DNA of 64,000 nucleotides from an uncultured Verrucomicrobiales bacterium (GCA_964622095.1 CAZUPP010000008.1:15773-79772), one strand, 5' to 3'; shown: positions 6,243 to 64,000, counted from the stretch's first letter. The notes: a model not told the origin generated them from the letters alone. Numbers and translations are program-made.

Positions 6243-6305
6243 GGTTGGATTACGTAACGAATGGGCGCGAGTTGACAAGGGGCGCGATGATTCTATGCTC
6301 GCTTT

Positions 6306-18943: not shown

Positions 18944-19033
18944 AAAGACCGATGCTAGATGGCCGCCCGAGCATAACGCAATCAGGAATTTTGAAGGTGG
19001 CAGGCGGTTGATTGAAATGCTATAGAAACCGCT

Positions 19034-23854: not shown

Positions 23855-25894
23855 TCACTTGATCACGTCTTCGTCTTCGTCCTTCTTGCGCTTTTTCTTC
23901 AAGCCGCCAAGAAGCTTTTTGCCCCAGCCCGCATTTGCTTCTTCTTCCTCCTCCAGTTCCTTCAGGCTCTTTGGAGCTACGGGCCGGGGAGCCGCAAGGT
24001 TTGAGGTGACTGGCTTCACGGCCCGCGGTGCCTTGAATTCAGGTTTCGCGACGAAATGGGAGCTGGCGCTGGGTGGACGCTGCACATCCTGCTTCGGGAC
24101 ACGATCCTCCTCTGGCCCGTGATAGGCCTGAAGGATGTTACTGCTGGCGGCATGGGATTTATCTCCGCTTCGAGGTTCTTCCGAAGGACGCCGATTGCTG
24201 CTCCCAGGCTTGGTCTTCGCCAGATCCGCCAGCCGGCGTTCCGCGCGGGCCATGAGTTCACTGCTGGAAAGTGAGCTGGTCTGTTCTTCCTCCCCGTCCT
24301 GCGCGGTTTCTGCGTGCTTACCAGCACCATTCTTTGTCCCGCCCGGAACGGAGATTTCACTGATCTCTTCCGCGCGCGTACCTTTGGGCGCCATGGGAGG
24401 GGGTGGCATCTGTTCCGGCACTTTGGCGACCCGCAGCGCCTTCGGTGTGCCGCTGTCTGTGGTTGGAACAAAGGAAGGATCCTCCGCCGGATCATACCCA
24501 TGATCTTCGCCGAGTGGCGTGAGAGAACTGCCAAAGCTGGGTTGATCCCTCTCATCAAACTCCGGCAGTGGCGCCACCGGGCCCATTTCTGTTTCTCTAC
24601 CGGTCTCTTTATCCCGGGAAAGCTGCAGCGGCCTGGCGACGGCACTCATGATGCTCATCTGCATGCCTCTGCCTGAACCCCGAGGGGCCGCGGGGATCGA
24701 GACCGGATCAGGAGGTGGCGACGAAACTTTTGCGCCTGTTTCCAGCGGAGTTTCGGCTGGCGTTACTGATTTGGGTGTAGCCTCTGCTTCCGCTGGCGCC
24801 GGAGATCCAGCCACGTTGCTGGCAGTTGCTGCGCCCGTGTGCACCTTCGTTTCATTGGCAACGGCGTTTTCGCGTTCCTCGCGTTCGGCCAGACGGGCGG
24901 CCTCCTGGCTGCGCGCTTCCTGGACCGCGCGGGCGGCACGGGCAGCTACTTTCAGACAGAGATGACTGCGCGTTTCCTCATCCGAGACGAAATGGTAGCT
25001 GAGGAGAAGCGAGGGTTCCGTGACAGGGATGTGGGTTGCCCGGCTCTTCTCCAAAGTTGGCCCCAGCATTAACTCAGGTATCCCGAGGGCATCATTTCCA
25101 TGAAGGAGCAACTCACGTAGGTTCGCGGTCGAGGTCAGTTCTTTCGGCAAGGACGAAATCTGATTGTCGCGCAGATCAAGCGTGGTGAGATTTGGCAGGG
25201 CTGCGATAAAGGCGGGAACAGTCGTGAGCTGATTCCCTTCCAGATAAATCTTTTGCAGCCGGTGAAGTCCAGCCGTGCCGTAGTCCGGGATTTCTCTAAG
25301 CTGGTTATGGTCCAGTCCCAGCATTTTCAGCGCACCCAGTTCAAGAAGAGCGGGAGCCAGTTCGCTGATTTGATTGTTGCCCAGCCAGAGGATCTCCAGA
25401 GACCTGAGCCGGGCCAGGGCGGGGGAAATGGCCGTCAATTGGTTTCCATCCAGATACAGCTCGCGGAGGCGCTCCAGATGGCGGACGGAATCCGGAACGG
25501 CCGCGAGTTGATTGTTACTCAGGTAAACTTCCTGGAGATAGGTGAGCTGGCCGAAACCCTCCGGGAGCTCTTTGATCTGGTTGTCTGACAGGTAGACCGC
25601 GGTGAGCTTTTTCAGCTCCAAGAGCCGGGGCGACAGTTGCTTTAGACCGCATTCTTTAGCGAAGAGCACGCTCAGGTGCGTCAGCTCAAAGAGTTCCTCT
25701 GGCAGCTCATCCAGCTCGAGCTTGCTCAGACTAAGGCTCGGCGCCTGCTCGCGGGCGGCGCGAGCAATTCTCTCTTGGGCTATCTGGAGAGGGTCAGACA
25801 CGGGTAACGGTCTCTGCGGGAATTGTCTGGTCAGGACACAGGCTCTCTCGTCGCTGGAATGGCGATTCTCAATTGTGCATTGGCCAACCATCAT
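23855..25894 (-). CDS. leucine-rich repeat protein with a long disordered C-terminal region
   Basis: About 10 consecutive ~23-residue LRRs (LxxLxLxxNQLxxLPxxxxxL), e.g. LTAVYLSDNQIKELPEGFGQLTY and LQEVYLSNNQLAAVPDSVRHLER. These are followed by about 370 aa of P/S/A/E-rich sequence ending KKLLGGLKKKRKKDEDEDVIK. No signal peptide. Confidence 0.8.
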   Translation of the reverse strand: MMVGQCTIENRHSSDERACVLTRQFPQRPLPVSDPLQIAQERIARAAREQAPSLSLSKLELDELPEELFELTHLSVLFAKECGLKQLSPRLLELKKLTAVYLSDNQIKELPEGFGQLTYLQEVYLSNNQLAAVPDSVRHLERLRELYLDGNQLTAISPALARLRSLEILWLGNNQISELAPALLELGALKMLGLDHNQLREIPDYGTAGLHRLQKIYLEGNQLTTVPAFIAALPNLTTLDLRDNQISSLPKELTSTANLRELLLHGNDALGIPELMLGPTLEKSRATHIPVTEPSLLLSYHFVSDEETRSHLCLKVAARAARAVQEARSQEAARLAEREERENAVANETKVHTGAATASNVAGSPAPAEAEATPKSVTPAETPLETGAKVSSPPPDPVSIPAAPRGSGRGMQMSIMSAVARPLQLSRDKETGRETEMGPVAPLPEFDERDQPSFGSSLTPLGEDHGYDPAEDPSFVPTTDSGTPKALRVAKVPEQMPPPPMAPKGTRAEEISEISVPGGTKNGAGKHAETAQDGEEEQTSSLSSSELMARAERRLADLAKTKPGSSNRRPSEEPRSGDKSHAASSNILQAYHGPEEDRVPKQDVQRPPSASSHFVAKPEFKAPRAVKPVTSNLAAPRPVAPKSLKELEEEEEANAGWGKKLLGGLKKKRKKDEDEDVIK

Positions 25895-26183: not shown

Positions 26184-27260
26184 TCAAGGGGAAAGCCGTT
26201 CCTCACCATCTTCCGTGGCGTCCTCCGCCGGATCAACGTCATCCTTTGAACGAGCCGCTTGCGAGTAAAGCTCCGCCCAGCCGCTGCTGCCCAGCCGTTC
26301 GGCCCTCTCTTTTTCGCGGGCCTCGCGTTCTGCCGCACGTTTGGCGGCGAGAGTTTCCAGGTGTACTTTTTGATGAAAGCGAGCTCCCACAACCGCTCCG
26401 GCGAAAATCATGGCGATGACCGCACCTTTCGCGATTGCTGGGATTCTCGGCCTGAGCGCCGGGATCAGCAGAATGACGGCTAGCAGCGGAACGAGACCGA
26501 TAAGGGCCATGCTGATGGTGGAAACCGAGCCCATCGTCATGGAGACCAGATTGTAGTTCAGCAATAGTGCGACGGCGGGAATGGAAGCGAGGGTGAGTAG
26601 CTTTTTGCCCCACGGGAACAACGTCGCCAGCGTGATGGTGCCAATGGCCAGACCGGTGGACAGGATAAAGAAATTCTGCGCCGTGGCGCCGGCCAGATAG
26701 TAGAGCACCAGAAAAGAAGTGGCCCAAGCGCCGAGCAGAACTCCGGAAAGAAAAGGCTGAAAGTGGCGGCAAAAGAGCTCGATGCACGCCATCAGGACCA
26801 GGCCATCGATCGTGGCAAGGGCGATCCACCTCAGAAGTTTGCCATTGTCCCACGGCGAAGTCGGAGCGGTGGCGATTTCTCTCAAGCTGACCCAGGCGAC
26901 GAGGGCGAGCAACACCGCCCGCAGCACCCAGCCCACGACCATGCGCACGAGGCGGTTGGGCACTTCACAATTCAGGATGGCCACCAGAAGGGCGACAACA
27001 CCGCCGATGAGGGCGGTGTGAGGTGCCCAATCACTCCCGGATTCTGGTATGAGCTGGAAATCCCGGCCCCGGATGGTGAGGTTGACGACCAGGGTGCCAG
27101 CGAAGGCGCCCAGCCCGATTCCCAGAGCGCCAGTCCCGGCCATGGCATGATCGGCCCACTTTTCGTGACGGTGCAGTTTCAGCGCCCAGGCGAGGAGCGC
27201 GACTGCTCCCGCCGTTAGAACGGCCGCTGCGAAAATGGGGATGAGTTGCTCAATGGTCAT
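26184..27260 (-). CDS. polytopic membrane protein with a charged C-terminal tail
   Basis: 358 aa, about 9-10 hydrophobic segments. The tail is AAKRAAEREAREKERAERL...DDVDPAEDATEDGEE. No family recognised. Confidence 0.6.
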   Translation of the reverse strand: MTIEQLIPIFAAAVLTAGAVALLAWALKLHRHEKWADHAMAGTGALGIGLGAFAGTLVVNLTIRGRDFQLIPESGSDWAPHTALIGGVVALLVAILNCEVPNRLVRMVVGWVLRAVLLALVAWVSLREIATAPTSPWDNGKLLRWIALATIDGLVLMACIELFCRHFQPFLSGVLLGAWATSFLVLYYLAGATAQNFFILSTGLAIGTITLATLFPWGKKLLTLASIPAVALLLNYNLVSMTMGSVSTISMALIGLVPLLAVILLIPALRPRIPAIAKGAVIAMIFAGAVVGARFHQKVHLETLAAKRAAEREAREKERAERLGSSGWAELYSQAARSKDDVDPAEDATEDGEERLSP

Positions 27261-40399: not shown

Positions 40400-41242
40400 T
40401 CACTCTGATGGGGAGCTGCTCGTCGCCATGCCTTCCAGCAAGTTTATCATCTTCGTGGCCATCCGCTGGCCCAGGGTCTCAGCGCTTTGGCCGTCATAGT
40501 GCCAGTGATCAAACTTTCTCAGGTCATCAGATGATGCGACCGCTGACAAGCTGATCCGGCCTGGCAGCATCGCCAGACCGTCGTTGATTGGGTTCTCGCC
40601 AGAAATCTCTCCTGCAACGAAAGCCACCTCTCCAAATTCTTCGCGAAAGGCCGCAATCATCCTCTCCAGGTTCGGCAGGTAATCCGCCTCCTTACCCTGA
40701 GCCAGATCTGTTTCACCTTGGATCCAAAGGATGCCGGACAGGGTGCCGCCGCTTTTCAGAGCTTCTTTGGTGCGCCGAACCGCTTCCTGAAAAAGTTGAC
40801 CTTCCGGCTGCCATTCCGCGGCGCTGGTCCAGCCCTTGGCGTTGACCACCAGACCAATGGCGCGCTCCGGGAAGCCCTCGCGCATCCGCTTCGCGAACCC
40901 GAAGGCAGGGCTGATCCCCTGCAGACCGATGCCCTTTCGGACCGTGGAAAATTCGTTATACGGATGGCGGGCCGGCACCCACAGCCCATTCCCGTCCAGC
41001 AGCCACACACCATTCAGCTCGCCGGTGTCACTCTCTGCGGGCATGGCACGGCCTGCCATGTTGCTCTGGCCGATACAGAGAAACACCTTCAACTCGTCCT
41101 TTGGGGGTTGAGCCTGACCGTGGAGTGTCCAGCACACCAAGAAAAAGGTCACGGGCAGAATGAGTCGTGGCCATACCGGTCCCGTCGATTTCGTCTGGGG
41201 TGAGATTTGTTTGATCACAGTGGAGGAGTCGAGCATGCTCAC
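40400..41242 (-). CDS. sialate O-acetylesterase-like carbohydrate esterase (SASA domain)
   Basis: Signal peptide, then VFLCIGQSNMAGR, WIQGETD and a DHWHY region. The start is GTG 41242 or ATG 41236. Confidence 0.8.
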   Translation of the reverse strand: MSMLDSSTVIKQISPQTKSTGPVWPRLILPVTFFLVCWTLHGQAQPPKDELKVFLCIGQSNMAGRAMPAESDTGELNGVWLLDGNGLWVPARHPYNEFSTVRKGIGLQGISPAFGFAKRMREGFPERAIGLVVNAKGWTSAAEWQPEGQLFQEAVRRTKEALKSGGTLSGILWIQGETDLAQGKEADYLPNLERMIAAFREEFGEVAFVAGEISGENPINDGLAMLPGRISLSAVASSDDLRKFDHWHYDGQSAETLGQRMATKMINLLEGMATSSSPSE

Positions 41243-46757: not shown

Positions 46758-47348
46758 TCAGGGAACTTCTTTAGTCAGAAGGAATCTCCCGGTTAAAGAA
46801 AATCCCTGCTTATCCGGATCAGAACCGGCTCCCGTGATACTGACTGAATTAATTTCAAAAAGCTTTTCCCTTGATTCAAGCGCAGCGAGCGCGTTACCCA
46901 TCGTCACAAAATTAACCGGTCCACTGTCAATTGACACCTTCACAGTGTTGAAGTCGTTTTCGAGCCCGGGCACATTGGCATCGCCCGTTTCCGAGATGGC
47001 GGTGGCTGGTTTCTCTACTCCCAGACTATTGAGTTGCCGGTTGATTCTCGGCGGCAGCCAGGTGATCGGGTCGCGCAGGGGCATTTCTTCCTCGTTGGTC
47101 AACGCGATATAATTTCGGCTTTTCTCCGCGGATTCCGCCGCCGCCTCGTTCGCGCTGCGGATCATTTGATTCGCGGTTTTGATGTTGCGCTGCATCAGTG
47201 CGATTTGCTGGTCCAGAGACTTCAATTCTTCCACCCGCGGCTTAACGAGCATCTGATGGATAAGATAAACCACCACCACGACGAGGATCACGCCGATTAA
47301 CATGCGCTTCTGTTGCTCCGGCGTCAGCCGGTCGAGACTTATCTTCAT
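46758..47348 (-). CDS. pilO: PilO-like pilus/secretion assembly protein
   Basis: Short cytoplasmic N-terminus, one TM (MLIGVILVVVVVYLI), a coiled coil (VEELKSLDQQIALMQRNIKTANQM), then a small alpha/beta domain. Third gene of the M-N-O triad. Confidence 0.6.
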   Translation of the reverse strand: MKISLDRLTPEQQKRMLIGVILVVVVVYLIHQMLVKPRVEELKSLDQQIALMQRNIKTANQMIRSANEAAAESAEKSRNYIALTNEEEMPLRDPITWLPPRINRQLNSLGVEKPATAISETGDANVPGLENDFNTVKVSIDSGPVNFVTMGNALAALESREKLFEINSVSITGAGSDPDKQGFSLTGRFLLTKEVP

Positions 47349-47378
47349 AAGGTGAATGGGGAAAACTACAAAATGAAC

Positions 47379-48050
47379 TTAGCCACCCGCCTGCGCTGTG
47401 GCTGGCGCTTCGCTGGCCAAGCCGTCCGCCGAGTCAGGTTTCTTGATCGCCACCATTTGAACTTCGAAATCCGTGAGGCCGTATTTCTCTCCCTCCAGGG
47501 AAACGGTGTTTTCTGCAGAGTAGAGCATCATGGGAAAATCTTTATTCACGTCAAAACCCAGGTCCTCCAGCCTGTTTTCAAACCTCTGGCTGAATTCGTC
47601 CGCCGTGTCATTGGCGTCTTTCTGATCCTTGCCTGCTGCACGTCCCCGGAAGGTCAGATTCAATATCTTCCCATCAGGCGTATAGGTGCCGTTGAGGGAA
47701 ATAATCTGAACCTTGGGTGGAGTCGCCTGCGCCAGTTCAGATAAAATGGGTGACCAGTAAAACCGGCTATTCACCCAATTCACCAGTGCTTCCGCGGTGG
47801 CGCTCTGCGCGAGATCTTCTTCTTTCTGAACGGCCGCTTCTTTGGAGCGAGGTTCCAGCTCCCTCCATTTCCGGTTCAAGTCCTCAAAAACATTGCGCTG
47901 GCCCTGCACCTTCGCGCCCAGCAGCATCCACCACGCAATCATTCCCATGCAAATCACCAGGGCTAAAAGCAGGCCGATCTTAATCGGATCCAGTTTTCTT
48001 TCCAGATCCGCCTGCTGTTTGGGAAATAGTAGATTTACTTCGAGCGCCAT
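47379..48050 (-). CDS. pilN: PilN-like pilus/secretion assembly protein
   Basis: N-terminal EVNLLFPKQQ (PilN INLLP-type motif), one TM (IGLLLALVICMGMIAWWML), a coiled coil and a periplasmic domain. Confidence 0.65.
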   Translation of the reverse strand: MALEVNLLFPKQQADLERKLDPIKIGLLLALVICMGMIAWWMLLGAKVQGQRNVFEDLNRKWRELEPRSKEAAVQKEEDLAQSATAEALVNWVNSRFYWSPILSELAQATPPKVQIISLNGTYTPDGKILNLTFRGRAAGKDQKDANDTADEFSQRFENRLEDLGFDVNKDFPMMLYSAENTVSLEGEKYGLTDFEVQMVAIKKPDSADGLASEAPATAQAGG

Positions 48051-48079
48051 ATTGCCTCCGAAAAAAAGAAAACGATCGG

Positions 48080-49159
48080 TCAGTGAGAGCTGCCTGTGAC
48101 TTGAAGTTGCTCCAGCGCGACCCCGGCGGCCACGGTGAGATTGATAAAGTCCGCCTGAAACGCTTCTTCCTGTCTCTTCGGTAGCTTTCTCTCACATAAC
48201 TCCGGGGGAAGCGGATCCCATAGCTCACACGGGATATCTACAAAACCCACCAGAGCCTGCAGAAGTCCCTGGGACGCCGCCATGCCGCCGGAGATTAATA
48301 CTTTGCTGATACTCTGGTCCTTGAGATTCTCGAAAAAACCGGCGGAATTCATGATCTCCCGGCTCAGGCCGGCAATATAGTTTTCTGCCCGCTGAACTAC
48401 TTCACGGTCGTCATTCTGCAGGCTGCCGATCACCTCCTCCGCACTCATCCCACTGTCCGCAGCCAGATAACTGATCAGTCCCTGGCCGCCATACTCCACC
48501 TTGCGGACTACGAACAGCTCTCCAAATGCGCCAATAATCAGATTGGTTTCCAGATGTCCTATATCCACCAGCATAAAGGCGCTGTTGTAGAAGGTTTGCT
48601 TCTGGGCAAACTGAAAGGCGTTAAAGATAGACACCGGCGCGGCCTGAAGTGATTTTGGATTGATGCGCTCTTTCAGGGTCGCGTTCCAGACCATTTCCAC
48701 CGTCGCCGCCGGCAGACCCGCCACCAGGTATTGCCGCTTGCGCTTGGTCCTCGAGCCGCTGGCGGATTCGGCCTCGGCCGCTTCGATCTTCGCGGGAGTC
48801 TCATTGAGCACGGTATCAAGGACGTAGCTGGTCACGTCCTGATCCAGGATGGCACTGCCGTTCATGCGCAGGGCATCACGTAGAATCGGTTTGGGCGTTT
48901 CGGATTGCTCGATGTTCTTGATGATCGCCTCAGGCTGCGTAATCGCCAAGCCGATCGTCTTGGAAGGAGCACCTACCCGTTTGATGGATTGCTTCAGGTA
49001 AAGAGAAAGCTCCTGCGCCGTGCGAATTTCACCGTCCACGAGCAGGTTGCTGTAACCGGTCACCGTCACACGATCCTTGCCTTTGCGCTGAAGGGAGATC
49101 GCCTTAATCGAATGATGACCGATATCAATGCCGGTCGCCGTGCTGGGAGCTTTTGCCAT
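48080..49159 (-). CDS. pilM: PilM-like actin-fold pilus assembly protein
   Basis: TGIDIGHHSIKAISL, MLVDIGHLETNLII and ISGGMAASQGL are the FtsA/PilM-type ASKHA motifs. 359 aa. Confidence 0.8.
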   Translation of the reverse strand: MAKAPSTATGIDIGHHSIKAISLQRKGKDRVTVTGYSNLLVDGEIRTAQELSLYLKQSIKRVGAPSKTIGLAITQPEAIIKNIEQSETPKPILRDALRMNGSAILDQDVTSYVLDTVLNETPAKIEAAEAESASGSRTKRKRQYLVAGLPAATVEMVWNATLKERINPKSLQAAPVSIFNAFQFAQKQTFYNSAFMLVDIGHLETNLIIGAFGELFVVRKVEYGGQGLISYLAADSGMSAEEVIGSLQNDDREVVQRAENYIAGLSREIMNSAGFFENLKDQSISKVLISGGMAASQGLLQALVGFVDIPCELWDPLPPELCERKLPKRQEEAFQADFINLTVAAGVALEQLQVTGSSH

Positions 49160-52097: not shown

Positions 52098-53057
52098 ATG
52101 ATCTTCAATCAGTTAGGCCGGACCGGCCTCAAAATCTCCGCCCTTTCCTACGGCACCTGGCAGACCTTCGGCGAAACCGTGGAGCTTCCGGAGGCTGATG
52201 CCATTGTCTCGAAAGCATGGGACCTGGGTATCCGCTGCTTCGATGGCGCCGAAGCTTATGCCTTGGGCAAGGCGGATGAAATGATGGGGAATGTCCTTAA
52301 GAACAAGAACTGGCTTCGCGAAGAATATGTTCTGACCGGCAAATGCATCCGCGGCGCGGATGGTCCTCAGCACCACGGCATCTCCCGGAAGCGGCTGGTT
52401 TCATGCTGTGAGCGTACCCTCAAAAAGTATCATACGGATTATCTGGACCTGTTTTTCTGCCACCGCCCGGATGGCGTGACCCCCCCGGAAGAGATCGTCA
52501 TTACGATGAACGCCCTGATTCAGCAGGGCAAAATCCTTTACTGGGGGACAAGCGAATTTGAGCCCATGACCATCGAGCGGTTGTGGCAGTTTGCTGGCAG
52601 GCATGGCCTCGCCGGTCCCGTCGTTGAGCAGACCGGCTATAACCTGCTCAGCCGCGACCGGATGGAAAAGGATCTCCTCCCGCTCTTCGAAAAATGGGGC
52701 ATGGGCACGACGGTTTACTCACCCATCGCCGTGGGGCAACTGAGCGGGAAATACAATAACGGCATCCCGGAAGGGACACGCCTGGCCGATCACGAATGGC
52801 TGAGGAACCAATTGACGCCGCAGCGGCTCCAGCAATTGCAGAATCTCCAAAGGGTGGCGGATGAAATGGGCCAGCCCATGGCAACCATGGCCCTGGCCTG
52901 GGTCCTGAAGAAGCCGAACGTTTCTACCGCGATCACTGGGGCGCGCCGGGCCGATCAAGTGGAACGTAATCTGGGCGCAATCGAACTGGCGGAGAAGCTT
53001 ACGACGGAAGACCTCACAAGAATCGAGGCTGCACTCAACGTCGAAGCCGCCATTTAA
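52098..53057 (+). CDS. aldo/keto reductase (Kv-beta / YajO-like)
   Basis: LGRTGLKISALSYGTW, FDGAEAYALGKADEMMG, DLFFCHRPD, YWGTSEF. Start moved to ATG 52098. Confidence 0.85.
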   Translation: MIFNQLGRTGLKISALSYGTWQTFGETVELPEADAIVSKAWDLGIRCFDGAEAYALGKADEMMGNVLKNKNWLREEYVLTGKCIRGADGPQHHGISRKRLVSCCERTLKKYHTDYLDLFFCHRPDGVTPPEEIVITMNALIQQGKILYWGTSEFEPMTIERLWQFAGRHGLAGPVVEQTGYNLLSRDRMEKDLLPLFEKWGMGTTVYSPIAVGQLSGKYNNGIPEGTRLADHEWLRNQLTPQRLQQLQNLQRVADEMGQPMATMALAWVLKKPNVSTAITGARRADQVERNLGAIELAEKLTTEDLTRIEAALNVEAAI

Positions 53058-53791
53058 CCTGCCTCCAGCAGCCTGCAAAAGGTCATTGCGTCCCACTGCC
53101 CGCGCACGGCATGAGTTCCGAGATGCACATAGTTCAGGCGCGAGCCTGCCCGGGCAAGGATGAGCCGAGAGTAAGCGCCGAAAGGAGCGCCCATGCCCAT
53201 CGCGGCCCAGATCAGTCCGCTTTCGCTGGCGGCCTCCGCAAAGCGGAGCAGCTCATTGAGTTCGCGAAGCGCCACGGTGGTGGTGGCGGCCTTGAAGATA
53301 TCCACGGGCAGATCGCGGAGAGCGGTCCGGGCGCAATCCAGCAACCGGTCGCTGGCCGGTGTGCCCGTTAAATCATGCACAGAACACACGACGCGGATCC
53401 CCTGCGATCTCAGATCAGTTGCCAGTCCGGCAAACCTGGCCCCGACCTGCGGATCAATCAATGAAGCCAGCTCCATATCTGCCAGGCTGGCAAAAGGAGC
53501 GAAGCGGCAAAGAACCTCCACCCTCTGTAGGTCGCTCAGTCCGGCGGACGCGCCCCCTTCATCGGCCCGGCGGCAGGTAATGAGAAATCGTGGCGGTCCA
53601 CCCGGTGAAAGCTCCTGGAGCAGATCCTCCACTTCATCCAGATCCGCCGCCAGGCAATCAAGGCGCAGCTCCAGGAGAGAACAGGCCCGGATCATGGGAG
53701 CATCCGGGGCCGAGACGAGAAGGTGCAGATTCTCGCGGGTGTGAATGACCCCGACGATTTCACCCTGACGGTTTTCCGCGCTACCTTCCAT
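53054..53791 (-). CDS. aroD: type I 3-dehydroquinate dehydratase
   Basis: Motif-by-motif match to E. coli AroD: ELRLDCL/EWRVDHY, FLITCRRADEGG/LLFTFRSAKEGG, VVCSVHDLTGTP/VVMSNHDFHKTP, DIFKAATT/DIPKIALM (Schiff-base Lys), MGMGAPFGAYSRL/MSMAKTGVISRL. Confidence 0.75.
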   Translation of the reverse strand: MEGSAENRQGEIVGVIHTRENLHLLVSAPDAPMIRACSLLELRLDCLAADLDEVEDLLQELSPGGPPRFLITCRRADEGGASAGLSDLQRVEVLCRFAPFASLADMELASLIDPQVGARFAGLATDLRSQGIRVVCSVHDLTGTPASDRLLDCARTALRDLPVDIFKAATTTVALRELNELLRFAEAASESGLIWAAMGMGAPFGAYSRLILARAGSRLNYVHLGTHAVRGQWDAMTFCRLLEAG

Positions 53792-53934: not shown

Positions 53935-55329
53935 ATGCTTCGTCGAACGCGAGAGCTTAATCAACAACTCTACCAGCTCTTGGACGGCCTGCTTCTGGGG
54001 TTGGCCTTTTTCCTCGCGCATGCCGTCCGCTATTACCTGACACCTTACACGGAGCTTTTCACGGCACGCATCGCTCCGTTTCAGAGTTTCCTCTGGATCA
54101 TCTTCATCATCGTTCCGTTCGGGCCTATTTTCCTGGAACTGCAGGGATTCTACCGGCAGCAACTGGGGCGCGGCCTGGAGCGTGCCATCTCCCAGATCAT
54201 TATTGCCATGCTGGGTCTTGCCCTGGTGCTGGGCATCTGCATTCTGCTGCTTCGTTACCCGGCGCCGCCCCGTTCAGTATCCGTCTTTTTTGCTGGGGCT
54301 GCCGTCTTTCTGCTTCTGGCCAGGCATCTCTTTGCCCGCTGGCTTTACCGGCACCGCACCCGTAAAGAAGCCCTTCGCGAGACCATCGTGCTGGCCGGCA
54401 CAGATGAGGACATCGCGTCCTTCGAGAACGAGATGGATTCAGAGTTCTATAGCCAATTCCGCGTGGTTGACCGGGTGGATATCCAACGCCAGCCCACCTC
54501 GGATCTGGTCGAGGTTCTCCACGAGTATTCCGTCAGCAAGGTCATCTTCGTCGCCGGTCACAGTTACCTCGGCAAAGTGGAGGAGGCCATCGGCGCCTGC
54601 GAGATCGAAGGGGTGGAGGTGTGGCTTCTGGCCAGCTTTATCACCACAAAGATCGCCCGGCCCCAGTTTGAGAGCCTCTTCGGCCACCCACTCATGGTCT
54701 TCCGGTCGACTCCGGAATCATCCTGGAGCTTGTGGATCAAGGAATTAATGGACCGGGTGGGATCGCTCGGGCTGATCATCGCGCTTTCGCCCCTGCTGAT
54801 CACCGTTTCTATCCTCGTTCGGCTAACCTCGCCGGGCCCTGCGATTTTCAAGCAGAAGCGGGCTGGCCTGCACGGTCGCGCCTTCACCATGTTTAAATTC
54901 CGGTCGATGTATCAGGACGCAGAACAGCGGAAAGCGGAGCTGGACGCGCTCAACCAGATGAGTGGACCGGTCTTTAAAATGGAAAATGATCCCCGGATCA
55001 CGGCCCTCGGCCGATTCATCCGGCGCACAAGCATTGATGAATTGCCGCAGCTTTTCAACGTGCTCCGGGGGGAAATGAGTCTGGTCGGGCCACGCCCGCT
55101 GCCGCTCTACGAAGTTGCGCAATTCGGAGACCGCGCGCAGCGGCGGCGTCTCAGTGTGAAGCCGGGTCTGACCTGTCTCTGGCAGATCAGTGGCCGCAAT
55201 AAGGTGACGGACTTTGAGGAGTGGGTCCGGCTGGACCTCGAATACATCGATCGCTGGTCCCTCTGGCTGGACATCAAAATCCTCCTGCGCACGATTCCTG
55301 CTGTGCTCTTTGGATCAGGAGCCCGTTAA
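53935..55329 (+). CDS. polyprenyl-phosphate glycosyl-1-phosphate transferase (WbaP/EpsB-type sugar transferase)
   Basis: N-terminal TM bundle. C-terminal bacterial sugar transferase domain: GPAIFKQKRAGLHGRAFTMFKFRSM, DPRIT..GRFIRRTSIDELPQLFNVLRGEMSLVGPRP. Confidence 0.85.
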   Translation: MLRRTRELNQQLYQLLDGLLLGLAFFLAHAVRYYLTPYTELFTARIAPFQSFLWIIFIIVPFGPIFLELQGFYRQQLGRGLERAISQIIIAMLGLALVLGICILLLRYPAPPRSVSVFFAGAAVFLLLARHLFARWLYRHRTRKEALRETIVLAGTDEDIASFENEMDSEFYSQFRVVDRVDIQRQPTSDLVEVLHEYSVSKVIFVAGHSYLGKVEEAIGACEIEGVEVWLLASFITTKIARPQFESLFGHPLMVFRSTPESSWSLWIKELMDRVGSLGLIIALSPLLITVSILVRLTSPGPAIFKQKRAGLHGRAFTMFKFRSMYQDAEQRKAELDALNQMSGPVFKMENDPRITALGRFIRRTSIDELPQLFNVLRGEMSLVGPRPLPLYEVAQFGDRAQRRRLSVKPGLTCLWQISGRNKVTDFEEWVRLDLEYIDRWSLWLDIKILLRTIPAVLFGSGAR

Positions 55330-55510: not shown

Positions 55511-56548
55511 ATGTCTAATCTCATCCATCTGATGAATCCGGCTTCTTCTGACAGTTCAAAGCATGAAAAACCGGTCTCCGTTATCACCGGCGGAGCTGGT
55601 TTTCTGGGATCACATCTCAGTGAGCGGCTGCTCGAAGCCGGGCATCAGGTCATCGTTTTTGACAGCCTGCTCACCGGTAAGCTTTCCAACATCGAACATC
55701 TGGGTGACCGCCCGGATTTTCGTTACATTCGCTATAATGTGACGAACTACATCATGGTCTCCGGACCGGTTGATTACGTCTTTCACTTTGCTTCTCCGGC
55801 AAGCCCGGTGGACTACCTGGAGCATCCCATTCCGACCCTGAAAGTCGGCGGGCTCGGCACCCACAATGCCCTCGGCCTCGCCAAGGATAAGGGCGCCACC
55901 TTTCTTCTGGCCTCCACTTCAGAGGTTTACGGTGATCCGCTCGTCCACCCTCAGAAGGAAGACTACTGGGGCAATGTCAATCCGATCGGCCCTCGCGGAG
56001 TCTATGATGAGGCCAAGCGTTTCGCCGAAGCGATCACTATGGCCTACCACCGCTTTCATGGGGTGGATACCAAGATTGTCCGTATCTTTAACACCTACGG
56101 CCCGCGCATGCGCCTCCATGATGGGCGGGTCGTGCCCACCTTCATCGCCCAGGCTCTCAATGGTCAGCCCCTCAGTGTTTATGGAGATGGCAGCCAGACC
56201 CGCAGCTTCTGTTATGTCAGTGACCTGATCGAGGGGATTTTTCGCCTCGCCATGAGTGACTATCACGAGCCGGTAAACATCGGTAACCCCCATGAAATGA
56301 CCATTCTTGAGTTTGCCAAGGCCATCATCCGCATCACCGGTCAGGACGTGCCGATCCAGTTCAAGCCGCTCCCGCAGGATGATCCCAAGATTCGTCAGCC
56401 GGATATCTCCCTGGCACGGCGTATCCTGAACTGGGATGTCCAGGTGGACTTTGAAACCGGTATCCGCCGGACGGTTGAATTCTTCAAATCCCGCCCGGAA
56501 GAGGTGCGGGCCTTTGCCGAAGCCAATCAGCTTAAGGCCAGCGCCTGA
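55511..56548 (+). CDS. UDP-glucuronate decarboxylase (UDP-xylose synthase, UXS)
   Basis: [44 protein letters not shown] (YxxxK), [22 protein letters not shown]. Confidence 0.9.
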
Positions 56549-56643: not shown

Positions 56644-56699
56644 CCTCCCATGGCAGTCCGTTCACTGTTTTCCGCGTAGAAACTTTCGATCGCACAATT

Positions 56700-57317
56700 A
56701 TGAAACCAAAGCTCTTCCCCACTGCTTACCTGCTAATCGGACTTGCCGCTTTCGGGCTGATCAATCTTACCACTCAGGCTCAAGCTCAGGCCCAGCAGCC
56801 AAGAATCGAGATCAAAGAGATCTCCGTTACCAACATCACTTCACCGGATTACACTTTCACCAAGTCCGAGGACTTTCGTTCCCGCGGGGGTGAATGGCTC
56901 CTGATCGAGGTGGAACTCGAGAACAAGGAGGAACTCGTGTCAGAGATTGCCGTGCGCTTCCACGTCGTGACCGAAAAAATGGCCAACCGCTCGGAAGGTC
57001 CTCAGTATTTTACGGGAGAGGTGACCTACATCAATCTGTTCAAGAACCGGTCTCTCTTCGGTTCTATGTATCTGCCTCCGAACTCTCTGAAGTTCGTCAA
57101 TGAGGGCCGGGAAGTGAAGGCGAATGATGTGGCCGAAGTGGGCGTTGAGATTCTCTACCAGGGCGCGATTATTGCTCAGGCCAACATGAAGGACAACAAT
57201 CGAGGGCCTTGGTGGCAATCCATGCAACCGCTTCAGGGGCACATGCTGAACAAAAACCAGACGCCGTTTGCGCCCCTCTATTGGGACCGCTATGAGCAGA
57301 TCAAGGCGACGCCCTGA
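56700..57317 (+). CDS. secreted hypothetical protein, first gene of the pilus-like cluster
   Basis: Signal peptide MKPKLFPTAYLLIGLAAFGLINLTTQAQAQ, then a beta-rich 175-aa domain. It occupies the position that Amuc_1102 has in the Akkermansia cluster (synteny recalled from memory, no sequence comparison made). Start moved to ATG 56700. Confidence 0.6.
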   Translation: MKPKLFPTAYLLIGLAAFGLINLTTQAQAQAQQPRIEIKEISVTNITSPDYTFTKSEDFRSRGGEWLLIEVELENKEELVSEIAVRFHVVTEKMANRSEGPQYFTGEVTYINLFKNRSLFGSMYLPPNSLKFVNEGREVKANDVAEVGVEILYQGAIIAQANMKDNNRGPWWQSMQPLQGHMLNKNQTPFAPLYWDRYEQIKATP

Positions 57318-57531: not shown

Positions 57532-59307
57532 ATGGCAACCGGTAACGCGATTACCTGTATCAATCTCGGTACTCAGTCCCTAAACCTGGCTACCTTTGTG
57601 CCTACCGGTTCCGGCGGGCTGACGCTGACCGGATACCACTCCACCCAGTTGCTGGCGGATCCCAACGCGGAGACCAGCCACATCCCGCAATTGCGGCTGG
57701 GACTGCGTGACCTGGCGACCCAGAGCGGAACGAAAGGGCGGCCAGTAAACTATTGCCTGCGCGGGGAGGCGGTCTTCAGCCGGTTTGTCCGGCTGCCCCG
57801 GCTGGACAGCAGCAAGGTGCAGCAGATCGTCACCTTTGAAGCTCAGCAGAACATCCCTTTTCCCTTAAAGGAAGTGGTGTGGGACTACCAGCTCGTCCAG
57901 CGCGGGCAGGAAGCGGAGATGGAGGTGGTGCTGGTGGCGATCAAGAAAGATCTCCTCAATGACGTAAATGAAGCGGTCGAGGACGCCGGGCTGGAAACAG
58001 AACTGGTGGACATTGCGCCGATGGCCCTGCTCAACGCTTTCCGGTTCAACTACTATGACGTCGACCAATGCTCCCTGGTCATTGACGTTGGCGCGCGCTC
58101 GACCAACCTGGCCTTCAGCGAGCCCGGCCTCATCTGGCTGCGCAGCTTTCGCCTCGGAGGAAATGACATCACCCAGGCCGTTTCCCGTGAGTTCAAGGAA
58201 GATTTTGCCGCCGCGGAGGAACGCAAAAAACGGGACGGCTTCGTGCATCTCGGCGGTGCTTATGAAGAGCCGGAAGATCCGGAGATCGCTACCCTGGGCA
58301 AGGTTATCCGCAATGCGATGACCCGCTTTCACACAGAGATCTCCCGCTCCATCAATTTCTACCGGTCCCAGCAGAAAGGCTCCAAGCCGGAGCGCATTTA
58401 CCTGGCAGGCAGCGGTTCAAGCCTGCCGTACATGACGGAGTTCTTTTCCGAAAAGTTCCAGGTCACCTGCGAATACTTCAATCCGCTGCGAAACGTGAAG
58501 CTGGGCAAGAACGTGCCTCAGGACGAACTGCTCGCGCAGCCCTACACCTTGGGAGAACTCGTCGGGGTAGCCCTGCGGCAGACCGGGCCGTGCCCGATGG
58601 AGATCAATCTTCAGCCGGACGCTGTCGCCGCTCGCAAGGAGCTGGGCTCCCGACGGCCCTTTTTCATCGCCGCCTCCATCTGCCTGCTGCTGGCCCTTGG
58701 CGGGTATTGGTTTTTCCTCACGCAGGGCAAGAAAAAAGCGGAAGCCGAACTGGCCGATCTTCAGCCCAAAGTTGCCGAATTCGAGCGCTATGCCCAGCAG
58801 ATCCGCGGTGCCCAAAGTGAACTGGACCGTCTGGAAAGGTTGGCTGCCCCGTATCTCCGCGCCAGTGAGCAGCCCGGCTATTGGGCTCGTGTTTTTGAGG
58901 ATCTCAATTCTCATCTGCCGGCTGAAGGCATCTGGCTGACCTCTGTCACTCCAGCACACGGAGAAAACCCCCTCTTGCCGGAAGACAACCAGGCGATCGC
59001 CAGCCTGTTGGAGGAAGAAAAGCCGGCATCCGCCCAGCCAGGGCGGCGCGGGGTAGAGTCAGAGGAAGAACAGGGGGTTTTTGTCGAGGCCCTGCTGGTA
59101 GAAGGGCTGGTTCTTGAAGGGTCCGAGCGCAAAGTGGACCTGGAGTTTTTGCCTGCCCTGCAGCGGGATTCAGAGATCTTCAATGTCACCAAGGAGGATG
59201 AGGATGAAATCATCGTCACCCCGGTGCAGCAGTCGCAAAAGCGGGACCGGTTCGCCATGCAGTTTCGGCTGCGTTTGCCGTTAAAGGATAAACTGCGCCT
59301 TGAATAG
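57532..59307 (+). CDS. PilM-PilN fusion protein
   Basis: N-terminal ~355 aa have the PilM/FtsA-type actin fold (INLGTQSLNLATF, LVIDVGARSTNLAF, YLAGSGSSLPYM). Next comes EINLQPD (PilN motif), a TM (FFIAASICLLLALGGYWFFL), a coiled coil and a periplasmic domain. Confidence 0.75.
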   Translation: MATGNAITCINLGTQSLNLATFVPTGSGGLTLTGYHSTQLLADPNAETSHIPQLRLGLRDLATQSGTKGRPVNYCLRGEAVFSRFVRLPRLDSSKVQQIVTFEAQQNIPFPLKEVVWDYQLVQRGQEAEMEVVLVAIKKDLLNDVNEAVEDAGLETELVDIAPMALLNAFRFNYYDVDQCSLVIDVGARSTNLAFSEPGLIWLRSFRLGGNDITQAVSREFKEDFAAAEERKKRDGFVHLGGAYEEPEDPEIATLGKVIRNAMTRFHTEISRSINFYRSQQKGSKPERIYLAGSGSSLPYMTEFFSEKFQVTCEYFNPLRNVKLGKNVPQDELLAQPYTLGELVGVALRQTGPCPMEINLQPDAVAARKELGSRRPFFIAASICLLLALGGYWFFLTQGKKKAEAELADLQPKVAEFERYAQQIRGAQSELDRLERLAAPYLRASEQPGYWARVFEDLNSHLPAEGIWLTSVTPAHGENPLLPEDNQAIASLLEEEKPASAQPGRRGVESEEEQGVFVEALLVEGLVLEGSERKVDLEFLPALQRDSEIFNVTKEDEDEIIVTPVQQSQKRDRFAMQFRLRLPLKDKLRLE

Positions 59308-59330: not shown

Positions 59331-60323
59331 ATGGATTGGATTAAACAGAACCCCTTTATTGCTGGCCTGGCCGGCGTCACCCTGGTGATCGCCGGGGTGC
59401 TCATCTTCCTGATCATGCAGGCGGGCGGAGCGCTTCAGGAGGCAGAATCCGAGTATGCCACCCAAAAGAACAATCATGACGGCCTGGTGACCGCGCGGAT
59501 TTATCCCAGCAGGGACAGCGTGGAAGCACTCGAGGCGCAGCAGGACGAAGTGCGTGAACGCCTCCGTGAACTGCGTGAAGCCTTTTCCTCAAAGCAAGTT
59601 GCGCCTGAACCCCTCAGCCCGGCGGATCTGGTCAGCCTCATTGTGGATTCAGTCAATGCCACCTACAGTTTGGCCGCGGAACGCGGGGTCAACATGCCCG
59701 CGAGGGAGGAGTTTTTCCTTGGCTTTAACCGTTACGAAGAGTCGCCCCCGCGCTTGGAGGCCGTGGATGAGCTGAGCGTCCTGCTGCAAGTCATCAAGAG
59801 CGTCGCGGAGCTGCTCATGGAAGAACAGATTGATGAGCTGATTTCCATTTCCCGGGTTGAACTCGCGGTGGAGAACGGCGCTCCCGAGGAGGAGGAAGAA
59901 GAGCCGCAGGGAAGACGCGGCCGCGGCCGAAGGGCGCCTGTGGTAGAGAAGATGCCGGAGCAGTTGGAACGCTGGACCTTTATTGTGCGTTTCAAGTCCA
60001 CCCAGGAAGCGCTGCAAAGGGTGATCAACAGCCTTCAGGCGATGGATCAACTTCTGGTCACTCAGCTGATTGCGGTCACCAATGAGAGCAAAGAAGGTCC
60101 TCTCCGGGAACAGACGGAGAGTGGCGAAGTCCGCTTTGGTGAGGACGGACTTCCCTTGCCGCCTGAGGAAGAAGATGCTGAGGAGGGCGAGCCTTCAGTC
60201 CGGGTGGTGCTGGGCCGTGAAAAAGTCGAGTCAGCTCTGCGCATTCAACTGATCCGCCTGGCACAGAGTGAAGAAGAATTCGAAGCCACCCTGGCCGGCA
60301 CATCCCAGAAACCCCGGCGGTAA
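59331..60323 (+). CDS. membrane-anchored coiled-coil protein, Amuc_1100-like / PilO-position
   Basis: MDWIKQNPFIAGLAGVTLVIAGVLIFLI anchor, a coiled coil, then an alpha/beta region. 330 aa. Segments such as LGFNRYEE...VIKSVAELL, RWTFIVRFKSTQEALQRVINSLQAMDQLLVTQLIAVTNE and GREKVESALRIQLIRL line up with my recollection of Amuc_1100 (317 aa). Confidence 0.65.
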   Translation: MDWIKQNPFIAGLAGVTLVIAGVLIFLIMQAGGALQEAESEYATQKNNHDGLVTARIYPSRDSVEALEAQQDEVRERLRELREAFSSKQVAPEPLSPADLVSLIVDSVNATYSLAAERGVNMPAREEFFLGFNRYEESPPRLEAVDELSVLLQVIKSVAELLMEEQIDELISISRVELAVENGAPEEEEEEPQGRRGRGRRAPVVEKMPEQLERWTFIVRFKSTQEALQRVINSLQAMDQLLVTQLIAVTNESKEGPLREQTESGEVRFGEDGLPLPPEEEDAEEGEPSVRVVLGREKVESALRIQLIRLAQSEEEFEATLAGTSQKPRR

Positions 60324-60352: not shown

Positions 60353-61402
60353 ATGGACTGGATAAAGAAACGTTACGACCGCTTTACCCTTTTGCTGGCG
60401 GCCATCATCCTGCTGGCCATGGCAGCTTTTGTCTACCTGCGGACGGGATCCTTCGGACAACAGTTCGAGCTGCAGACGGGCAATCCTAACGCCCAGCCGC
60501 CAACGAAGGATACCGAGGCCCTGAACGCGGCGCTCAACCAACTGCAGCAGCCGACTCCCTGGGAAGCGCGTGAAGAGGCTGACCCCAGTCTGTTCCGGGC
60601 AAAAACTCACCTTGTTCTGCCGGATGAAAACAAGCTGGTGAAAGTCGATCCGGAATCGGATATCACGATTTATGATCCCATCACCCTGCGCTGGATTCTG
60701 AAATACGATCTGCCTCTGGAAGATGACAGGCTGCCGCGGATGGATCCGGATGACGATGATTTCACGAATCAGGAAGAATTCCTCGCGGAAACCGATCCAA
60801 CCGATCCGGCAAGCCACCCGCCTTACACACGGCGGCTTTTTGTGAAGGAGGTCATTTCCAATCCGGATTTCTTTACCTTCGCGGCAAAACCGGCCGCGGA
60901 CACTTTTCAGATCAACCGGGAAGGGCGCCGGTCTCAATTTGTTCAGACCGGCTCCATCATTGAGGGCAGCGCCTGGAAGCTGATCGAATATACTGAAAAG
61001 ATGACGGAACGTCCGGGACGCGCTCCCCTCGATGAATCGGAGTTGACCCTGGAGAACACCGTGACCAGTGAGACCGCCACCCTGGTCAAAGGGAAGCGGA
61101 CAAACCTGGGGGATTTCACAGTGGTGCTGGAATACCTTTGGAAAGGGGATCAGGAATTTCGGCTCAAAGAGGACGGCACCTTCAATCTGCCGCCGGATAA
61201 CGACTCTTTCGTTGTTCAGGAAATCCAGCAAGATCCGCCGCTCGCCAAAGTTCAGCGTCAGGACGAATCCGGCAATCCCCAGGGCGAAGTGCTGAGCATT
61301 CGCGAACAGCAGCCGGGCGATATGCCTGAGCGTCTGAGCGGCAGTGCGGATGAAGGCGGCGAGGGCGAGTTCCCGGAAGGAGACGGAACCGCGGAGGGCT
61401 GA
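60353..61402 (+). CDS. membrane-anchored hypothetical protein with a thrombospondin-type-3-like acidic motif
   Basis: MDWIKKRYDRFTLLLAAIILLAMAAFVYL anchor; DPDDDDFTNQEEFLAETDPTDP (calcium-binding-type motif); acidic tail. It occupies the Amuc_1099 position. Confidence 0.6.
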   Translation: MDWIKKRYDRFTLLLAAIILLAMAAFVYLRTGSFGQQFELQTGNPNAQPPTKDTEALNAALNQLQQPTPWEAREEADPSLFRAKTHLVLPDENKLVKVDPESDITIYDPITLRWILKYDLPLEDDRLPRMDPDDDDFTNQEEFLAETDPTDPASHPPYTRRLFVKEVISNPDFFTFAAKPAADTFQINREGRRSQFVQTGSIIEGSAWKLIEYTEKMTERPGRAPLDESELTLENTVTSETATLVKGKRTNLGDFTVVLEYLWKGDQEFRLKEDGTFNLPPDNDSFVVQEIQQDPPLAKVQRQDESGNPQGEVLSIREQQPGDMPERLSGSADEGGEGEFPEGDGTAEG

Positions 61403-61672: not shown

Positions 61673-64000
61673 ATGACCCAGCACAAAACTATCCTTATCG
61701 TTTTACGGCACCTTCTCTTGGGTGTGCTCATCTTCACTGGGATTCTCCAAGCCTCAGCGGTTGATCCGCTCATCCAGCAGCTGGCTGAAAGAGAAATCCA
61801 GCGCCGTCAGCAGATGGCCGTTCTGGCCCAGGAAAATATGGCGGAAGGCGCCGAAGCCTACAACGAGGGTGACTATGAACGGGCCGTCGGGCTTTACCGG
61901 GGTGCGGTTGAAATGCTGCCGGATTCTGAGCGGACCGGAGCCCTGCGTGAACAGGCGATCAGCGACATGGTGGACAGCGTTCTCCAACTGACTGAACAGC
62001 GCATTGCGGAAGCGCGCTGGGCGGATGCGGAAACTCTGGTCGACTTTGCTCTGGAATTCCGTCCTGAAGATGAACGGGCGCTGTCCTTGAAAGACAAGCT
62101 GATCGACCCTGAGTATTTCCCCAAACAACGCACACCGCGCTATGTAGCCCAGGTGCAGGACGTGAAGCGTCTGCTGCAGGAAGGACGCGGTTTTTATCTC
62201 GACGGTCAATATGATCTCGCCATCAAGCGCTGTGATCAGGTGCTGAATATCGATCCTTATAACGCCGCGGCTTACCGCTTGAAGGAAGAGGTCTGGTCGA
62301 CCATTCGCCGGGAAAATGTCCCGGCAGTTTACAATAACACCCGGGCCGAGCTGCTGAGTCAGGTGGGTATGGCTTGGGGCACACCGGTTAATGAGTACGG
62401 CGAGGTGCGCGGTTTTGGAGATGAAGGCCCGGGAGAGGAAATGGGTGAACGCGAGCGGATCAACCGACTACTCGATACGCTCATCGTTCCAACGGTGGAA
62501 CTGAATGACGCCACCGTAGAGGAGGCCCTGGAGTTTCTTCGCTTCCAATCCATCCAGCTTGATCCGGACGGGCAGGGGATCGACTTCGTGTTGCGCCTCG
62601 ATGAAGGCGGCTCGAGCGGTGGTGGAGCTCCTGCGCCGGCTGCAGATGAATCGATCGACTTCGATGACTTTGGTTCCTCAGATGACGCGGGTGCGGCTCC
62701 AGCTGCTTCCGGAGGGAGCGTTTCTGCTCTGCCTCGCATCGATCTGCGTCTGCGCAACGCCCCACTCCGTGAAGTGCTGCGATATGTCACGGAGATCGCC
62801 GGTCTGGAATTTATCGTGGAAGACTTCGCGGTTCTTATTGTACCGCAAGGCGCGGACACGGCGGCTCGCGGCCGTGTGATTACCAAGACCATTCGTGTCC
62901 CACCTGACTTCATCACGCGGGCAGTTGGCTCCGGCGGCGGCGGCGGTGACGCCAGCGGCGGCGGTGGTGGCGGATTTGGTTTCGGTGAGCCTTCCGGCGA
63001 CGGGGGAAGCGAGCCTTCTCTGTCTGGCCCGTCTGCCACGGCGGAAGAAGCTTTACGCCAGCTGGGAATCAATCTGCCTCCTGCCGGTGGAGCAACTTTC
63101 GACCCCGGCACGGCCACCCTGACCGTTACCGCAACTTCTGCTCAGATCCGGCAAATTGAGGCGATCGCGCAGCAGATGCAAAGTCAGGTCGCCAAGCAGG
63201 TGAAGATCGAAGCGAAATTCCTTGAGGTGACGCAGGATAACTTTACCGAGCTTGGGTTTGACTGGCTCCTCGGCGCGGCCAACGTGCCCGGTAACAACGG
63301 TGTCTTCTTCTCCGGAGGTACGGAGGGCTTTACCAATCCGCCTCTGGATCAGTCCACTTTTCCCTTCAATGCTCCCGGTGCGGGGGCTCCGGTGGGAACC
63401 AACCCGGTCACAGGTGGTCTTCGCTCCGGAAATGTGGGTATCGCCAGCGACTCAATTGACTCGCTGCTTTTCCCCGCCCCAGCCCGTGACGGACTGCTGA
63501 TCTCTCCGGGCATCTTCTCGGTGGCTGGTGTATTCACGGATCCCCAGTTTCAGGTGGTGGTTCGTGCCTTGGATCAGAAACGTGCGGTCGATCTGCTTTC
63601 CGCTCCATCGGTTACGACCAAGAGCGGTCAGCGAGCGGTTATTGAGGTTAACCGGGAATTCCGGTTTCCAGTCGAGTTCGACCCACCCCAGATTCCACAG
63701 GATTTCGGAAGTATTGGTGGAACAGCCCTTGTGCCTGGTACTCTGGGGACTCCTCCCAGTTCCTTCCCGGTCACCCCAACCACACCTGTCACCTTTGAGA
63801 CGAAAAACACAGGGGTGACTTTGGAAGTCGATCCAACAGTCGGCGCTGATAATGTGACGATTGATCTCAATCTGATCCCGGAAGTCATCGAATTCGAGGG
63901 CTTCATCAACTACGGAAGTCCCATTCAGACCTTTTCCACGAATGCGATTGGCGTTGCCACGCCCATTGTTATCACTCCCAACGTGATCAACCAGCCGGTG
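61673..64000 (+). CDS. secretin (GspD/PilQ family), C-terminus beyond the window
   Basis: Not in the ORF track because there is no stop in the window. My translation from ATG 61673 is MTQHKTILIVLRHLLLGVLIFTGILQASA (signal), then TPR-like helices, N-domains (LRLRNAPLREVLRYVTEIAGLEFIV) and the secretin core (KIEAKFLEVTQDNFTELGFDW, QVVVRALDQKRAVDLLSAPSVTTKSGQRAVIEV, TGVTLEVDPTVGADNVTIDL). Confidence 0.8.
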   Translation, partial: MTQHKTILIVLRHLLLGVLIFTGILQASAVDPLIQQLAEREIQRRQQMAVLAQENMAEGAEAYNEGDYERAVGLYRGAVEMLPDSERTGALREQAISDMVDSVLQLTEQRIAEARWADAETLVDFALEFRPEDERALSLKDKLIDPEYFPKQRTPRYVAQVQDVKRLLQEGRGFYLDGQYDLAIKRCDQVLNIDPYNAAAYRLKEEVWSTIRRENVPAVYNNTRAELLSQVGMAWGTPVNEYGEVRGFGDEGPGEEMGERERINRLLDTLIVPTVELNDATVEEALEFLRFQSIQLDPDGQGIDFVLRLDEGGSSGGGAPAPAADESIDFDDFGSSDDAGAAPAASGGSVSALPRIDLRLRNAPLREVLRYVTEIAGLEFIVEDFAVLIVPQGADTAARGRVITKTIRVPPDFITRAVGSGGGGGDASGGGGGGFGFGEPSGDGGSEPSLSGPSATAEEALRQLGINLPPAGGATFDPGTATLTVTATSAQIRQIEAIAQQMQSQVAKQVKIEAKFLEVTQDNFTELGFDWLLGAANVPGNNGVFFSGGTEGFTNPPLDQSTFPFNAPGAGAPVGTNPVTGGLRSGNVGIASDSIDSLLFPAPARDGLLISPGIFSVAGVFTDPQFQVVVRALDQKRAVDLLSAPSVTTKSGQRAVIEVNREFRFPVEFDPPQIPQDFGSIGGTALVPGTLGTPPSSFPVTPTTPVTFETKNTGVTLEVDPTVGADNVTIDLNLIPEVIEFEGFINYGSPIQTFSTNAIGVATPIVITPNVINQPV

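Follow-up and report, generated by a model that had tools for sequence, protein, structure and literature searches.

Proteins of the Amuc_1100 family are curated by NCBI and Pfam under the name of their Akkermansia representative, for which NCBI uses the term 'pilus-like'. A crystal-structure paper of 2020 reportedly described a PilO-like fold for Amuc_1100 and is said to name PilO, PilN, and EpsL. In type IV pilus machines, PilN binds PilM through the motif INLLP. According to one report, Amuc_1100 is found on the cell surface and in fractions enriched in outer membrane (PMC5332112). Its surface exposure, TLR2 activation, and host immunomodulation, which were obtained by experiment (PMC5332112), are a membership criterion in neither of the two family models, NCBIfam NF038287 and Pfam PF28028. 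In a comparative study of 2026, the amuc_1099-1102 locus was found in 266 of 352 non-muciniphila Akkermansiaceae genomes and is syntenic across the Akkermansiaceae; it is often kept in other Verrucomicrobiales, less so in the Chthoniobacterales, and absent in the Methylacidiphilales (PMC13174399). The family and its spread in the Verrucomicrobiota are already catalogued (NCBIfam, Pfam, PMC13174399, PMC13119276).

The window analysed here, a stretch of 64,000 nucleotides from an uncultured Verrucomicrobiales bacterium, contains an ATG-started ORF whose limits coincide exactly with the interval proposed to encode an Amuc_1100 homologue (Table 1). Mechanical antisense ORFs aside, no competing long ORF was found on either strand over this interval. 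The encoded protein genuinely belongs to the Amuc_1100 family, as the original prediction had suspected, and is a divergent representative of it. It matches NF038287 ('Amuc_1100 family pilus-like protein') with an E-value of 4.2e-58, and its score of 197.3 bits barely clears the curated cut-off of 180; the alignment is full-length, covering protein residues 1-312 and model positions 1-325 of 326. A precomputed match to PF28028 (Amuc_1100) exists on the identical database protein P0001; the local Pfam scan did not include this model and is uninformative in this respect. Sequence comparisons with Amuc_1100 were significant by three routes. In a phmmer search of PDB sequences Amuc_1100 (6KNY, 6LAD) came out on top (E 1.4e-5, residues 54-312), pairwise BLASTP gave an E-value of 7e-6 with 24% identity over 187 columns, and a profile of 80 relatives retrieved Amuc_1100 (6KNY) from the PDB over nearly its whole length (E 8.3e-38). 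When the predicted structure was compared with the PDB by Foldseek, ranks 1-10 were all occupied by chains of the Amuc_1100 crystal structures (6KNY, 6LAD, 6LAF; E 5.9e-12 to 5e-11, target-normalised TM 0.74-0.88), and the Amuc_1100 core in 6LAF matched the modelled core with a TM of 0.80-0.88. The closest relative of the protein is 36% identical.

One might suspect a chance likeness between low-complexity, coiled-coil-rich proteins, because the pairwise identity to Amuc_1100 is only 24% over those 187 columns, charged residues are numerous, and phmmer also reported weak, coiled-coil-type matches to Cdc37. Passing the curated NF038287 model with full-length coverage is at odds with this explanation, as are the profile E-value and the ten best fold matches, and these results rule it out. 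Moreover, the four genes around the ORF each match the equivalent Akkermansia gene. We regard the probability of a chance resemblance as negligible.

Hydropathy and the AlphaFold2 model agree on the predicted layout of an N-terminal anchor, a coiled coil, and a C-terminal alpha/beta region. On the Kyte-Doolittle scale, hydropathy peaks at 2.7 in a window beginning at residue 9-10, and residues 9-30 are the sole strongly hydrophobic segment of the protein. In the model, which was computed with 80 relatives as input and reached a mean pLDDT of 87.8 and a pTM of 0.73, residues 8-54 form one unbroken helix, so that the membrane segment leads straight into the stalk. Two more long helices (61-88 and 97-118) precede a compact core in which the order helix-strand-strand occurs twice (H142-164, E169-175, E212-224, H225-236, E242-251, E298-310). 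The anchor is preceded by a conserved, presumably cytoplasmic motif, M-[ND]-W-x-[KR]-x-N. Thus, the protein has the layout of a bitopic membrane protein with a short N-terminus, one transmembrane helix, and a coiled coil that would be periplasmic; an uncleaved anchor with N-in topology appears probable. The small residues A-G-G at positions 31-33 would also make cleavage of a signal peptide possible. All four motifs that had been proposed for the family align to Amuc_1100 and coincide with the most conserved family columns (Table 1).

Table 1. Coordinates of the five-gene cluster, its conserved upstream neighbours, and the regions and motifs of the Amuc_1100 homologue. Motif remarks give conservation within the family; x/80, number of 80 sequences.
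Feature	Position in window	Strand	Evidence or remark
3-dehydroquinate dehydratase	53054-53791	-	conserved upstream neighbour
Polyprenyl glycosylphosphotransferase	53935-55329	+	conserved upstream neighbour
NAD-dependent sugar epimerase/dehydratase	55511-56548	+	conserved upstream neighbour
Amuc_1102-family pilus-like protein, Sec-type signal peptide	56699-57317	+	NF042424, E 6.7e-30, 104 bits, cut-off 55
Amuc_1101-family PilM-like protein	57532-59307	+	NF045709, E 5.8e-191, 636 bits, just below cut-off 650
Amuc_1100-family protein, 330 aa	59331-60323	+	NF038287, PF28028, PDB sequence and fold matches
N-terminal membrane anchor, ~residues 9-30	59355-59420	+	hydropathy and modelled helix 8-54
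Helical stalk with coiled-coil character, ~residues 31-118	59421-59684	+	helices 8-54, 61-88, 97-118; pLDDT mostly >90
Alpha/beta core	59712-60260	+	modelled secondary structure; matches 6LAF, 5UVR, 2RJZ
Charged variable loop, residues 182-211: NGAPEEEEEEPQGRRGRGRRAPVVEKMPEQ	59874-59963	+	family loop comparison, n=80
Second variable, acidic loop, residues 258-294	60102-60212	+	family loop comparison, n=80
Motif MDWIKQN			M1 invariant; W3 71/80; N7 77/80
Motif FLGFNRY..PP			F128, G131, Y135 at least 90%; P140 invariant
Motif ..VINSL...NE			N233 and N251 at least 90%
Motif LGREKV			G295 invariant; E297 at least 90%
Amuc_1099-family protein	60353-61402	+	NF042425, E 2.6e-50, 172 bits, cut-off 50
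Amuc_1098-family secretin, cut by window end	61673-64000	+	NF042912, E 2e-199; weaker GspD, MshL, PilQ matches

The highly charged insert attributed to this copy requires a different description. The stretch in question, PEEEEEEPQGRRGRGRRAP (residues 185-203), is present and belongs to the loop that joins the first and second core strands (beta1 and beta2), a region of low model confidence (pLDDT ~67-76). Yet this loop is hypervariable throughout the family: with 30 residues in the window protein it is close to the family median of 27 (range 10-45), and although its charged fraction of 0.47 exceeds the median of 0.255, 10 of 80 sequences (the window protein included) are equally or more charged. 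Several family members also share its pattern of acidic followed by basic residues. The stretch is thus no copy-specific insert, and the region was taken for an insertion because the corresponding loop of Amuc_1100 itself is unusually short, 10-14 residues below the family norm. The second variable loop has an ordinary length (37 residues versus a median of 38; pLDDT 63-78) and is unusually acidic; its charged fraction is 0.41 (family median 0.15), a level reached by only three of the 80 sequences, the window protein included. The window protein and Amuc_1100 have two variable loops at identical positions, and their genes hold equivalent places in the five-gene cluster Amuc_1102-1101-1100-1099-1098. 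They differ in that their best local alignment reaches only ~24% identity and in the beta1-beta2 loop, which is 10-14 residues longer and strongly charged in the window protein. TLR2 activation and the other host effects of Amuc_1100 have no obvious relevance to the window homologue.

All four neighbours in the cluster match the NCBIfam models for the corresponding Akkermansia genes, and gaps of just 23 and 29 nt lie between the genes of the Amuc_1101, Amuc_1100, and Amuc_1099 homologues. The start assigned to the Amuc_1102-family gene is the called gene start in metagenome contig L001, where PF28178 is recorded on the identical gene. The Amuc_1101 homologue carries the Pfam PilM_2 domain (residues 13-350) and exceeds the cut-off of the pilM model TIGR01175 (152 versus 133 bits). 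Directly after the PilM domain it contains the PilN-type peptide 'EINLQP' (residues 357-362) and a transmembrane segment (~378-397). Since 'EINLQP' resembles INLLP, we read this protein as a PilM-PilN-type fusion with a putatively PilN-like C-terminal half, in which PilM and the PilN peptide that it normally binds look as if they were tethered together. The secretin gene, which is complete in contig L001, encodes a protein of 884 aa with the Pfam Secretin domain.

The Amuc_1099 homologue combines an N-terminal anchor with beta-rich domains and a DxDxDG motif of the calcium-binding type, in which D131, D133, D135, and E142 are invariant. The full invariant pattern, DxDxDGxxNxxE at residues 131-142, is of the thrombospondin type 3 (calcium-binding) kind, and relatives of the protein carry Pfam PF18884. 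Its N-terminus (MDWIKK) is similar to that of the Amuc_1100 homologue (MDWIKQ). Its position in the cluster raises the possibility of a PilP-type protein. This assignment is unsupported, because a model of the Amuc_1099 homologue (pLDDT 83) had no significant fold match in the PDB (best E 0.04) and shows neither a PilP-like nor another known PDB fold.

The wide verrucomicrobial distribution expected for the family is supported by 922 cluster representatives (50% identity) recovered at E <= 1e-3 in an exhaustive search, and by the maintenance of gene order across metagenome-assembled genomes (MAGs) from several lineages. The order 1102-1101-1100-1099-secretin occurs in 7/7 loci examined, inside a conserved aroD…coaE-rho neighbourhood. 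It is present in three metagenome contigs that bear the identical gene and is kept in contigs L011-L013, whose family members are 27-36% identical. A genome scan that used the PilM-like neighbour as query found only four loci in MAGs and missed the genome of the window itself; the order is kept in L004, L005, and L006, from MAGs labelled Verrucomicrobiae, Terrimicrobiaceae, and Victivallales, respectively. A PilM-like locus in a Brocadiaceae-labelled MAG (22% identical) has no Amuc_1100 relative at that locus. The flanking genes recur as well. All three upstream neighbours listed in Table 1 are found in L012, the epimerase in L011, and the glycosylphosphotransferase in L013; downstream of the cluster, dephospho-CoA kinase and Rho genes are followed by an RNase D-like gene in L011-L013. 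The published flanks of the MUL2 locus include 3-dehydroquinate dehydratase, dephospho-CoA kinase, and rho, and free-living lineages from water and soil also conserve the family (PMC13174399).

Some of these loci have peculiarities of their own. In the Victivallales-labelled MAG (L006, 7306-15580) the full five-gene order scores well under the curated cut-offs (50.7 bits versus 180 for the Amuc_1100 model), and the secretin has 1241 aa; the cluster may occur outside the Verrucomicrobiota, or the label of this MAG could be wrong. Two long tandem ORFs follow the Amuc_1099 homologue in the Verrucomicrobiae MAG (L004, 11737-16854; 838 and 861 aa) and in the Terrimicrobiaceae MAG (L005, 11680-16798; 831 and 870 aa), and the second one of L004, the sole one of the four scanned, matches the Amuc_1098 secretin family with 885 bits. 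The window lineage has a single secretin gene at this place. With regard to the lineage itself, the best relatives of its MutS are 57-65% identical, and the named ones are 'Verrucomicrobiota bacterium' MAGs only.

As to the function of the protein, the PilO-like position suggested earlier is supported: the gene follows a PilM-like gene, the secretin gene lies two genes downstream, and the next-best structural matches are PilO proteins. After the Amuc_1100 chains, Foldseek retrieved PilO 3JC8_Oa (E 3e-3); PilO 2RJZ matched the model with a probability of 0.99 and a TM of 0.59, and the PilO core 5UVR with a probability of 0.99 and an rmsd of 2.1 A over 102 columns. Overall, the scores for the PilO fold are modest (E 3e-3 to 7e-2, TM 0.35-0.59). 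The gene order, which reads PilM/N-like, PilO-like, unknown protein, and secretin, parallels pilMNOPQ. At the sequence level, the PilO, PilN, and GspM models of Pfam and NCBIfam did not match the protein at E <= 1, and hhalign comparisons of the family profile with the PilO-like and PilN-like proteins of a second, split gene set in the window gave probabilities of 0.4% and 15.6%, respectively; with the C-terminal half of the Amuc_1101 protein, too, the comparison gave nothing significant. The link to PilO is therefore one of fold and position only.

We consider it likely that this divergent Amuc_1100-family protein is a bitopic, PilO-like part of an inner-membrane platform directed toward the secretin. 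Its partner would be the Amuc_1101 homologue, whose PilN-like C-terminal half it would contact by way of its own transmembrane helix, stalk, and core. Jointly with the Amuc_1099 homologue it may form a bridge from this inner-membrane platform to the outer-membrane secretin of the Amuc_1098 family, and the pilin-like protein of the Amuc_1102 family would then be the subunit handled by this machine, for which published Akkermansia work proposes a role in the attachment and uptake of glycans or particles. A simple transfer of the PilO model is, however, opposed by the modest fold scores and the lack of matches to the PilO, PilN, and GspM models, by the Amuc_1099 homologue lacking a PilP-like fold, and by the gene content of the window, where searches revealed neither a PilB-like ATPase nor a PilC-like platform protein nor a class III prepilin.

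In common with PilO of Pseudomonas aeruginosa (2RJZ, 5UVR) and Myxococcus xanthus (3JC8), the gene stands after pilM/pilN and before the secretin gene. However, a sequence-level match was not detected, and the window protein, with ~330 aa versus ~200 aa in PilO, is distinguished by its longer stalk and a pair of long disordered loops. Relative to PilMNOPQ of type IVa pili, the PilN partner is apparently fused to PilM, and the gene at the PilP position has an unrelated predicted fold. With the periplasmic domains of GspM and GspL from type II secretion the protein has the fold class and predicted membrane topology in common, and the window's secretin also resembles GspD. Unlike in type II secretion, the cytoplasmic partner matches PilM (TIGR01175 above cut-off) and not GspL, GspM and GspL give no sequence match, and GspE, GspF, and pseudopilin genes are lacking in the window neighbourhood.

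Alternatively, the protein could be exposed at the surface or associated with a pilus in the outer membrane and act directly in adhesion or in contact with a host or substrate. The reports of Amuc_1100 at the surface and in outer-membrane fractions fit poorly with an inner-membrane anchor and thus speak against the PilO-like reading, and the A-G-G that follows the hydrophobic segment could be a signal-peptidase site. Against this, the segment spans ~20 residues and continues into the stalk as a single helix in the model, and strong conservation of the cytoplasmic motif in front of it is not what one would expect of a signal peptide that is discarded. The fold and gene position, which match PilO, and the conservation of the family in free-living aquatic and soil lineages (PMC13174399) also argue against a direct surface function, which we therefore find quite improbable.

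Somewhat less improbable, although still rather unlikely in our view, is the idea that the cluster builds, instead of a pilus, a channel for secretion or uptake on the plan of type II secretion, in which the protein would be GspM-like and support a short pseudopilus or a gate. The secretin scores better with GspD (E 1e-19) than with PilQ (E 2.8e-12), the Amuc_1102 homologue has a Sec-type signal peptide and not a prepilin leader, genes for a pilus ATPase or platform protein are not nearby, and the locus has been compared to a secretion system (PMC13174399). On the other hand, the first gene of the platform passes the PilM cut-off of TIGR01175 instead of matching GspL, and in published structures Amuc_1102 resembles a type IV pilin of archaea (PMC13174399). 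As PilO and GspM share one fold, the data cannot separate a pilus from a channel; the protein's own role would be the same in both.

A second PilM/PilN/PilO-type set, in which the genes are split, is located ~10 kb upstream on the other strand (46758-49159, minus strand). It comprises a 359-aa PilM (Pfam PilM_2 E 5e-18, TIGR01175 E 5e-20), a 223-aa protein that starts with the PilN-type motif MALEVNLLFP and has weak similarity to the C-terminal region of the Amuc_1101 model (E 3e-4), and a 196-aa PilO-like protein (46758-47348) with a transmembrane segment, a coiled coil, and a weak GspM match (E 0.018). No secretin gene follows this split set. Since the window contains both a split and a fused set, the genome has two platform sets. 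Elsewhere, the window encodes a sulfatase (17588-19399, minus strand) and a sialate-type carbohydrate esterase (SASA; 40400-41242, minus strand), which suit the glycan-degrading way of life that is typical for Verrucomicrobiota, and a leucine-rich-repeat protein of 679 aa (23855-25894, minus strand). Putative ORFs of ~290-360 aa that had no Pfam or NCBIfam match at E <= 1e-5 are located at 1441-2301, 5769-6707, 9376-10341, 19750-20706, and 26184-27260. No tRNA or Rfam match was obtained anywhere in the 64 kb window.

Because the protein passes the NF038287 cut-off, standard annotation would already name the gene, and its identification carries little weight as a discovery. Its value lies in being a deep-branching example, with a nearest relative of 36% identity, which illustrates that even distant lineages have kept both the cluster and its housekeeping flanks. 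This stability supports the view that Amuc_1100 is a structural part of a machine and that its effects on mammalian hosts are secondary. The most far-reaching reading concerns the whole cluster and not the Amuc_1100 homologue in particular. More tentatively, and with considerable doubt, the observations might be joined in one scenario, in which the cluster is an ancestral core locus of the Verrucomicrobiota, encodes a non-canonical member of the type IV filament systems, and accounts for the host effects of Amuc_1100 only incidentally. The locus would have been inherited vertically in a fixed housekeeping neighbourhood (aroD … coaE-rho-RNase D), and it has recognisable, sub-threshold relatives in the Victivallales-labelled MAG. 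In such a machine PilN would be fused to PilM, the Amuc_1102-type subunit would leave the cytoplasm through Sec without prepilin processing, and PilP might be replaced by the Amuc_1099-type protein with its novel fold and its DxDxDG motif of the calcium-binding type. If this is true, the host effects of Amuc_1100 would be an incidental property of a periplasmic platform protein.
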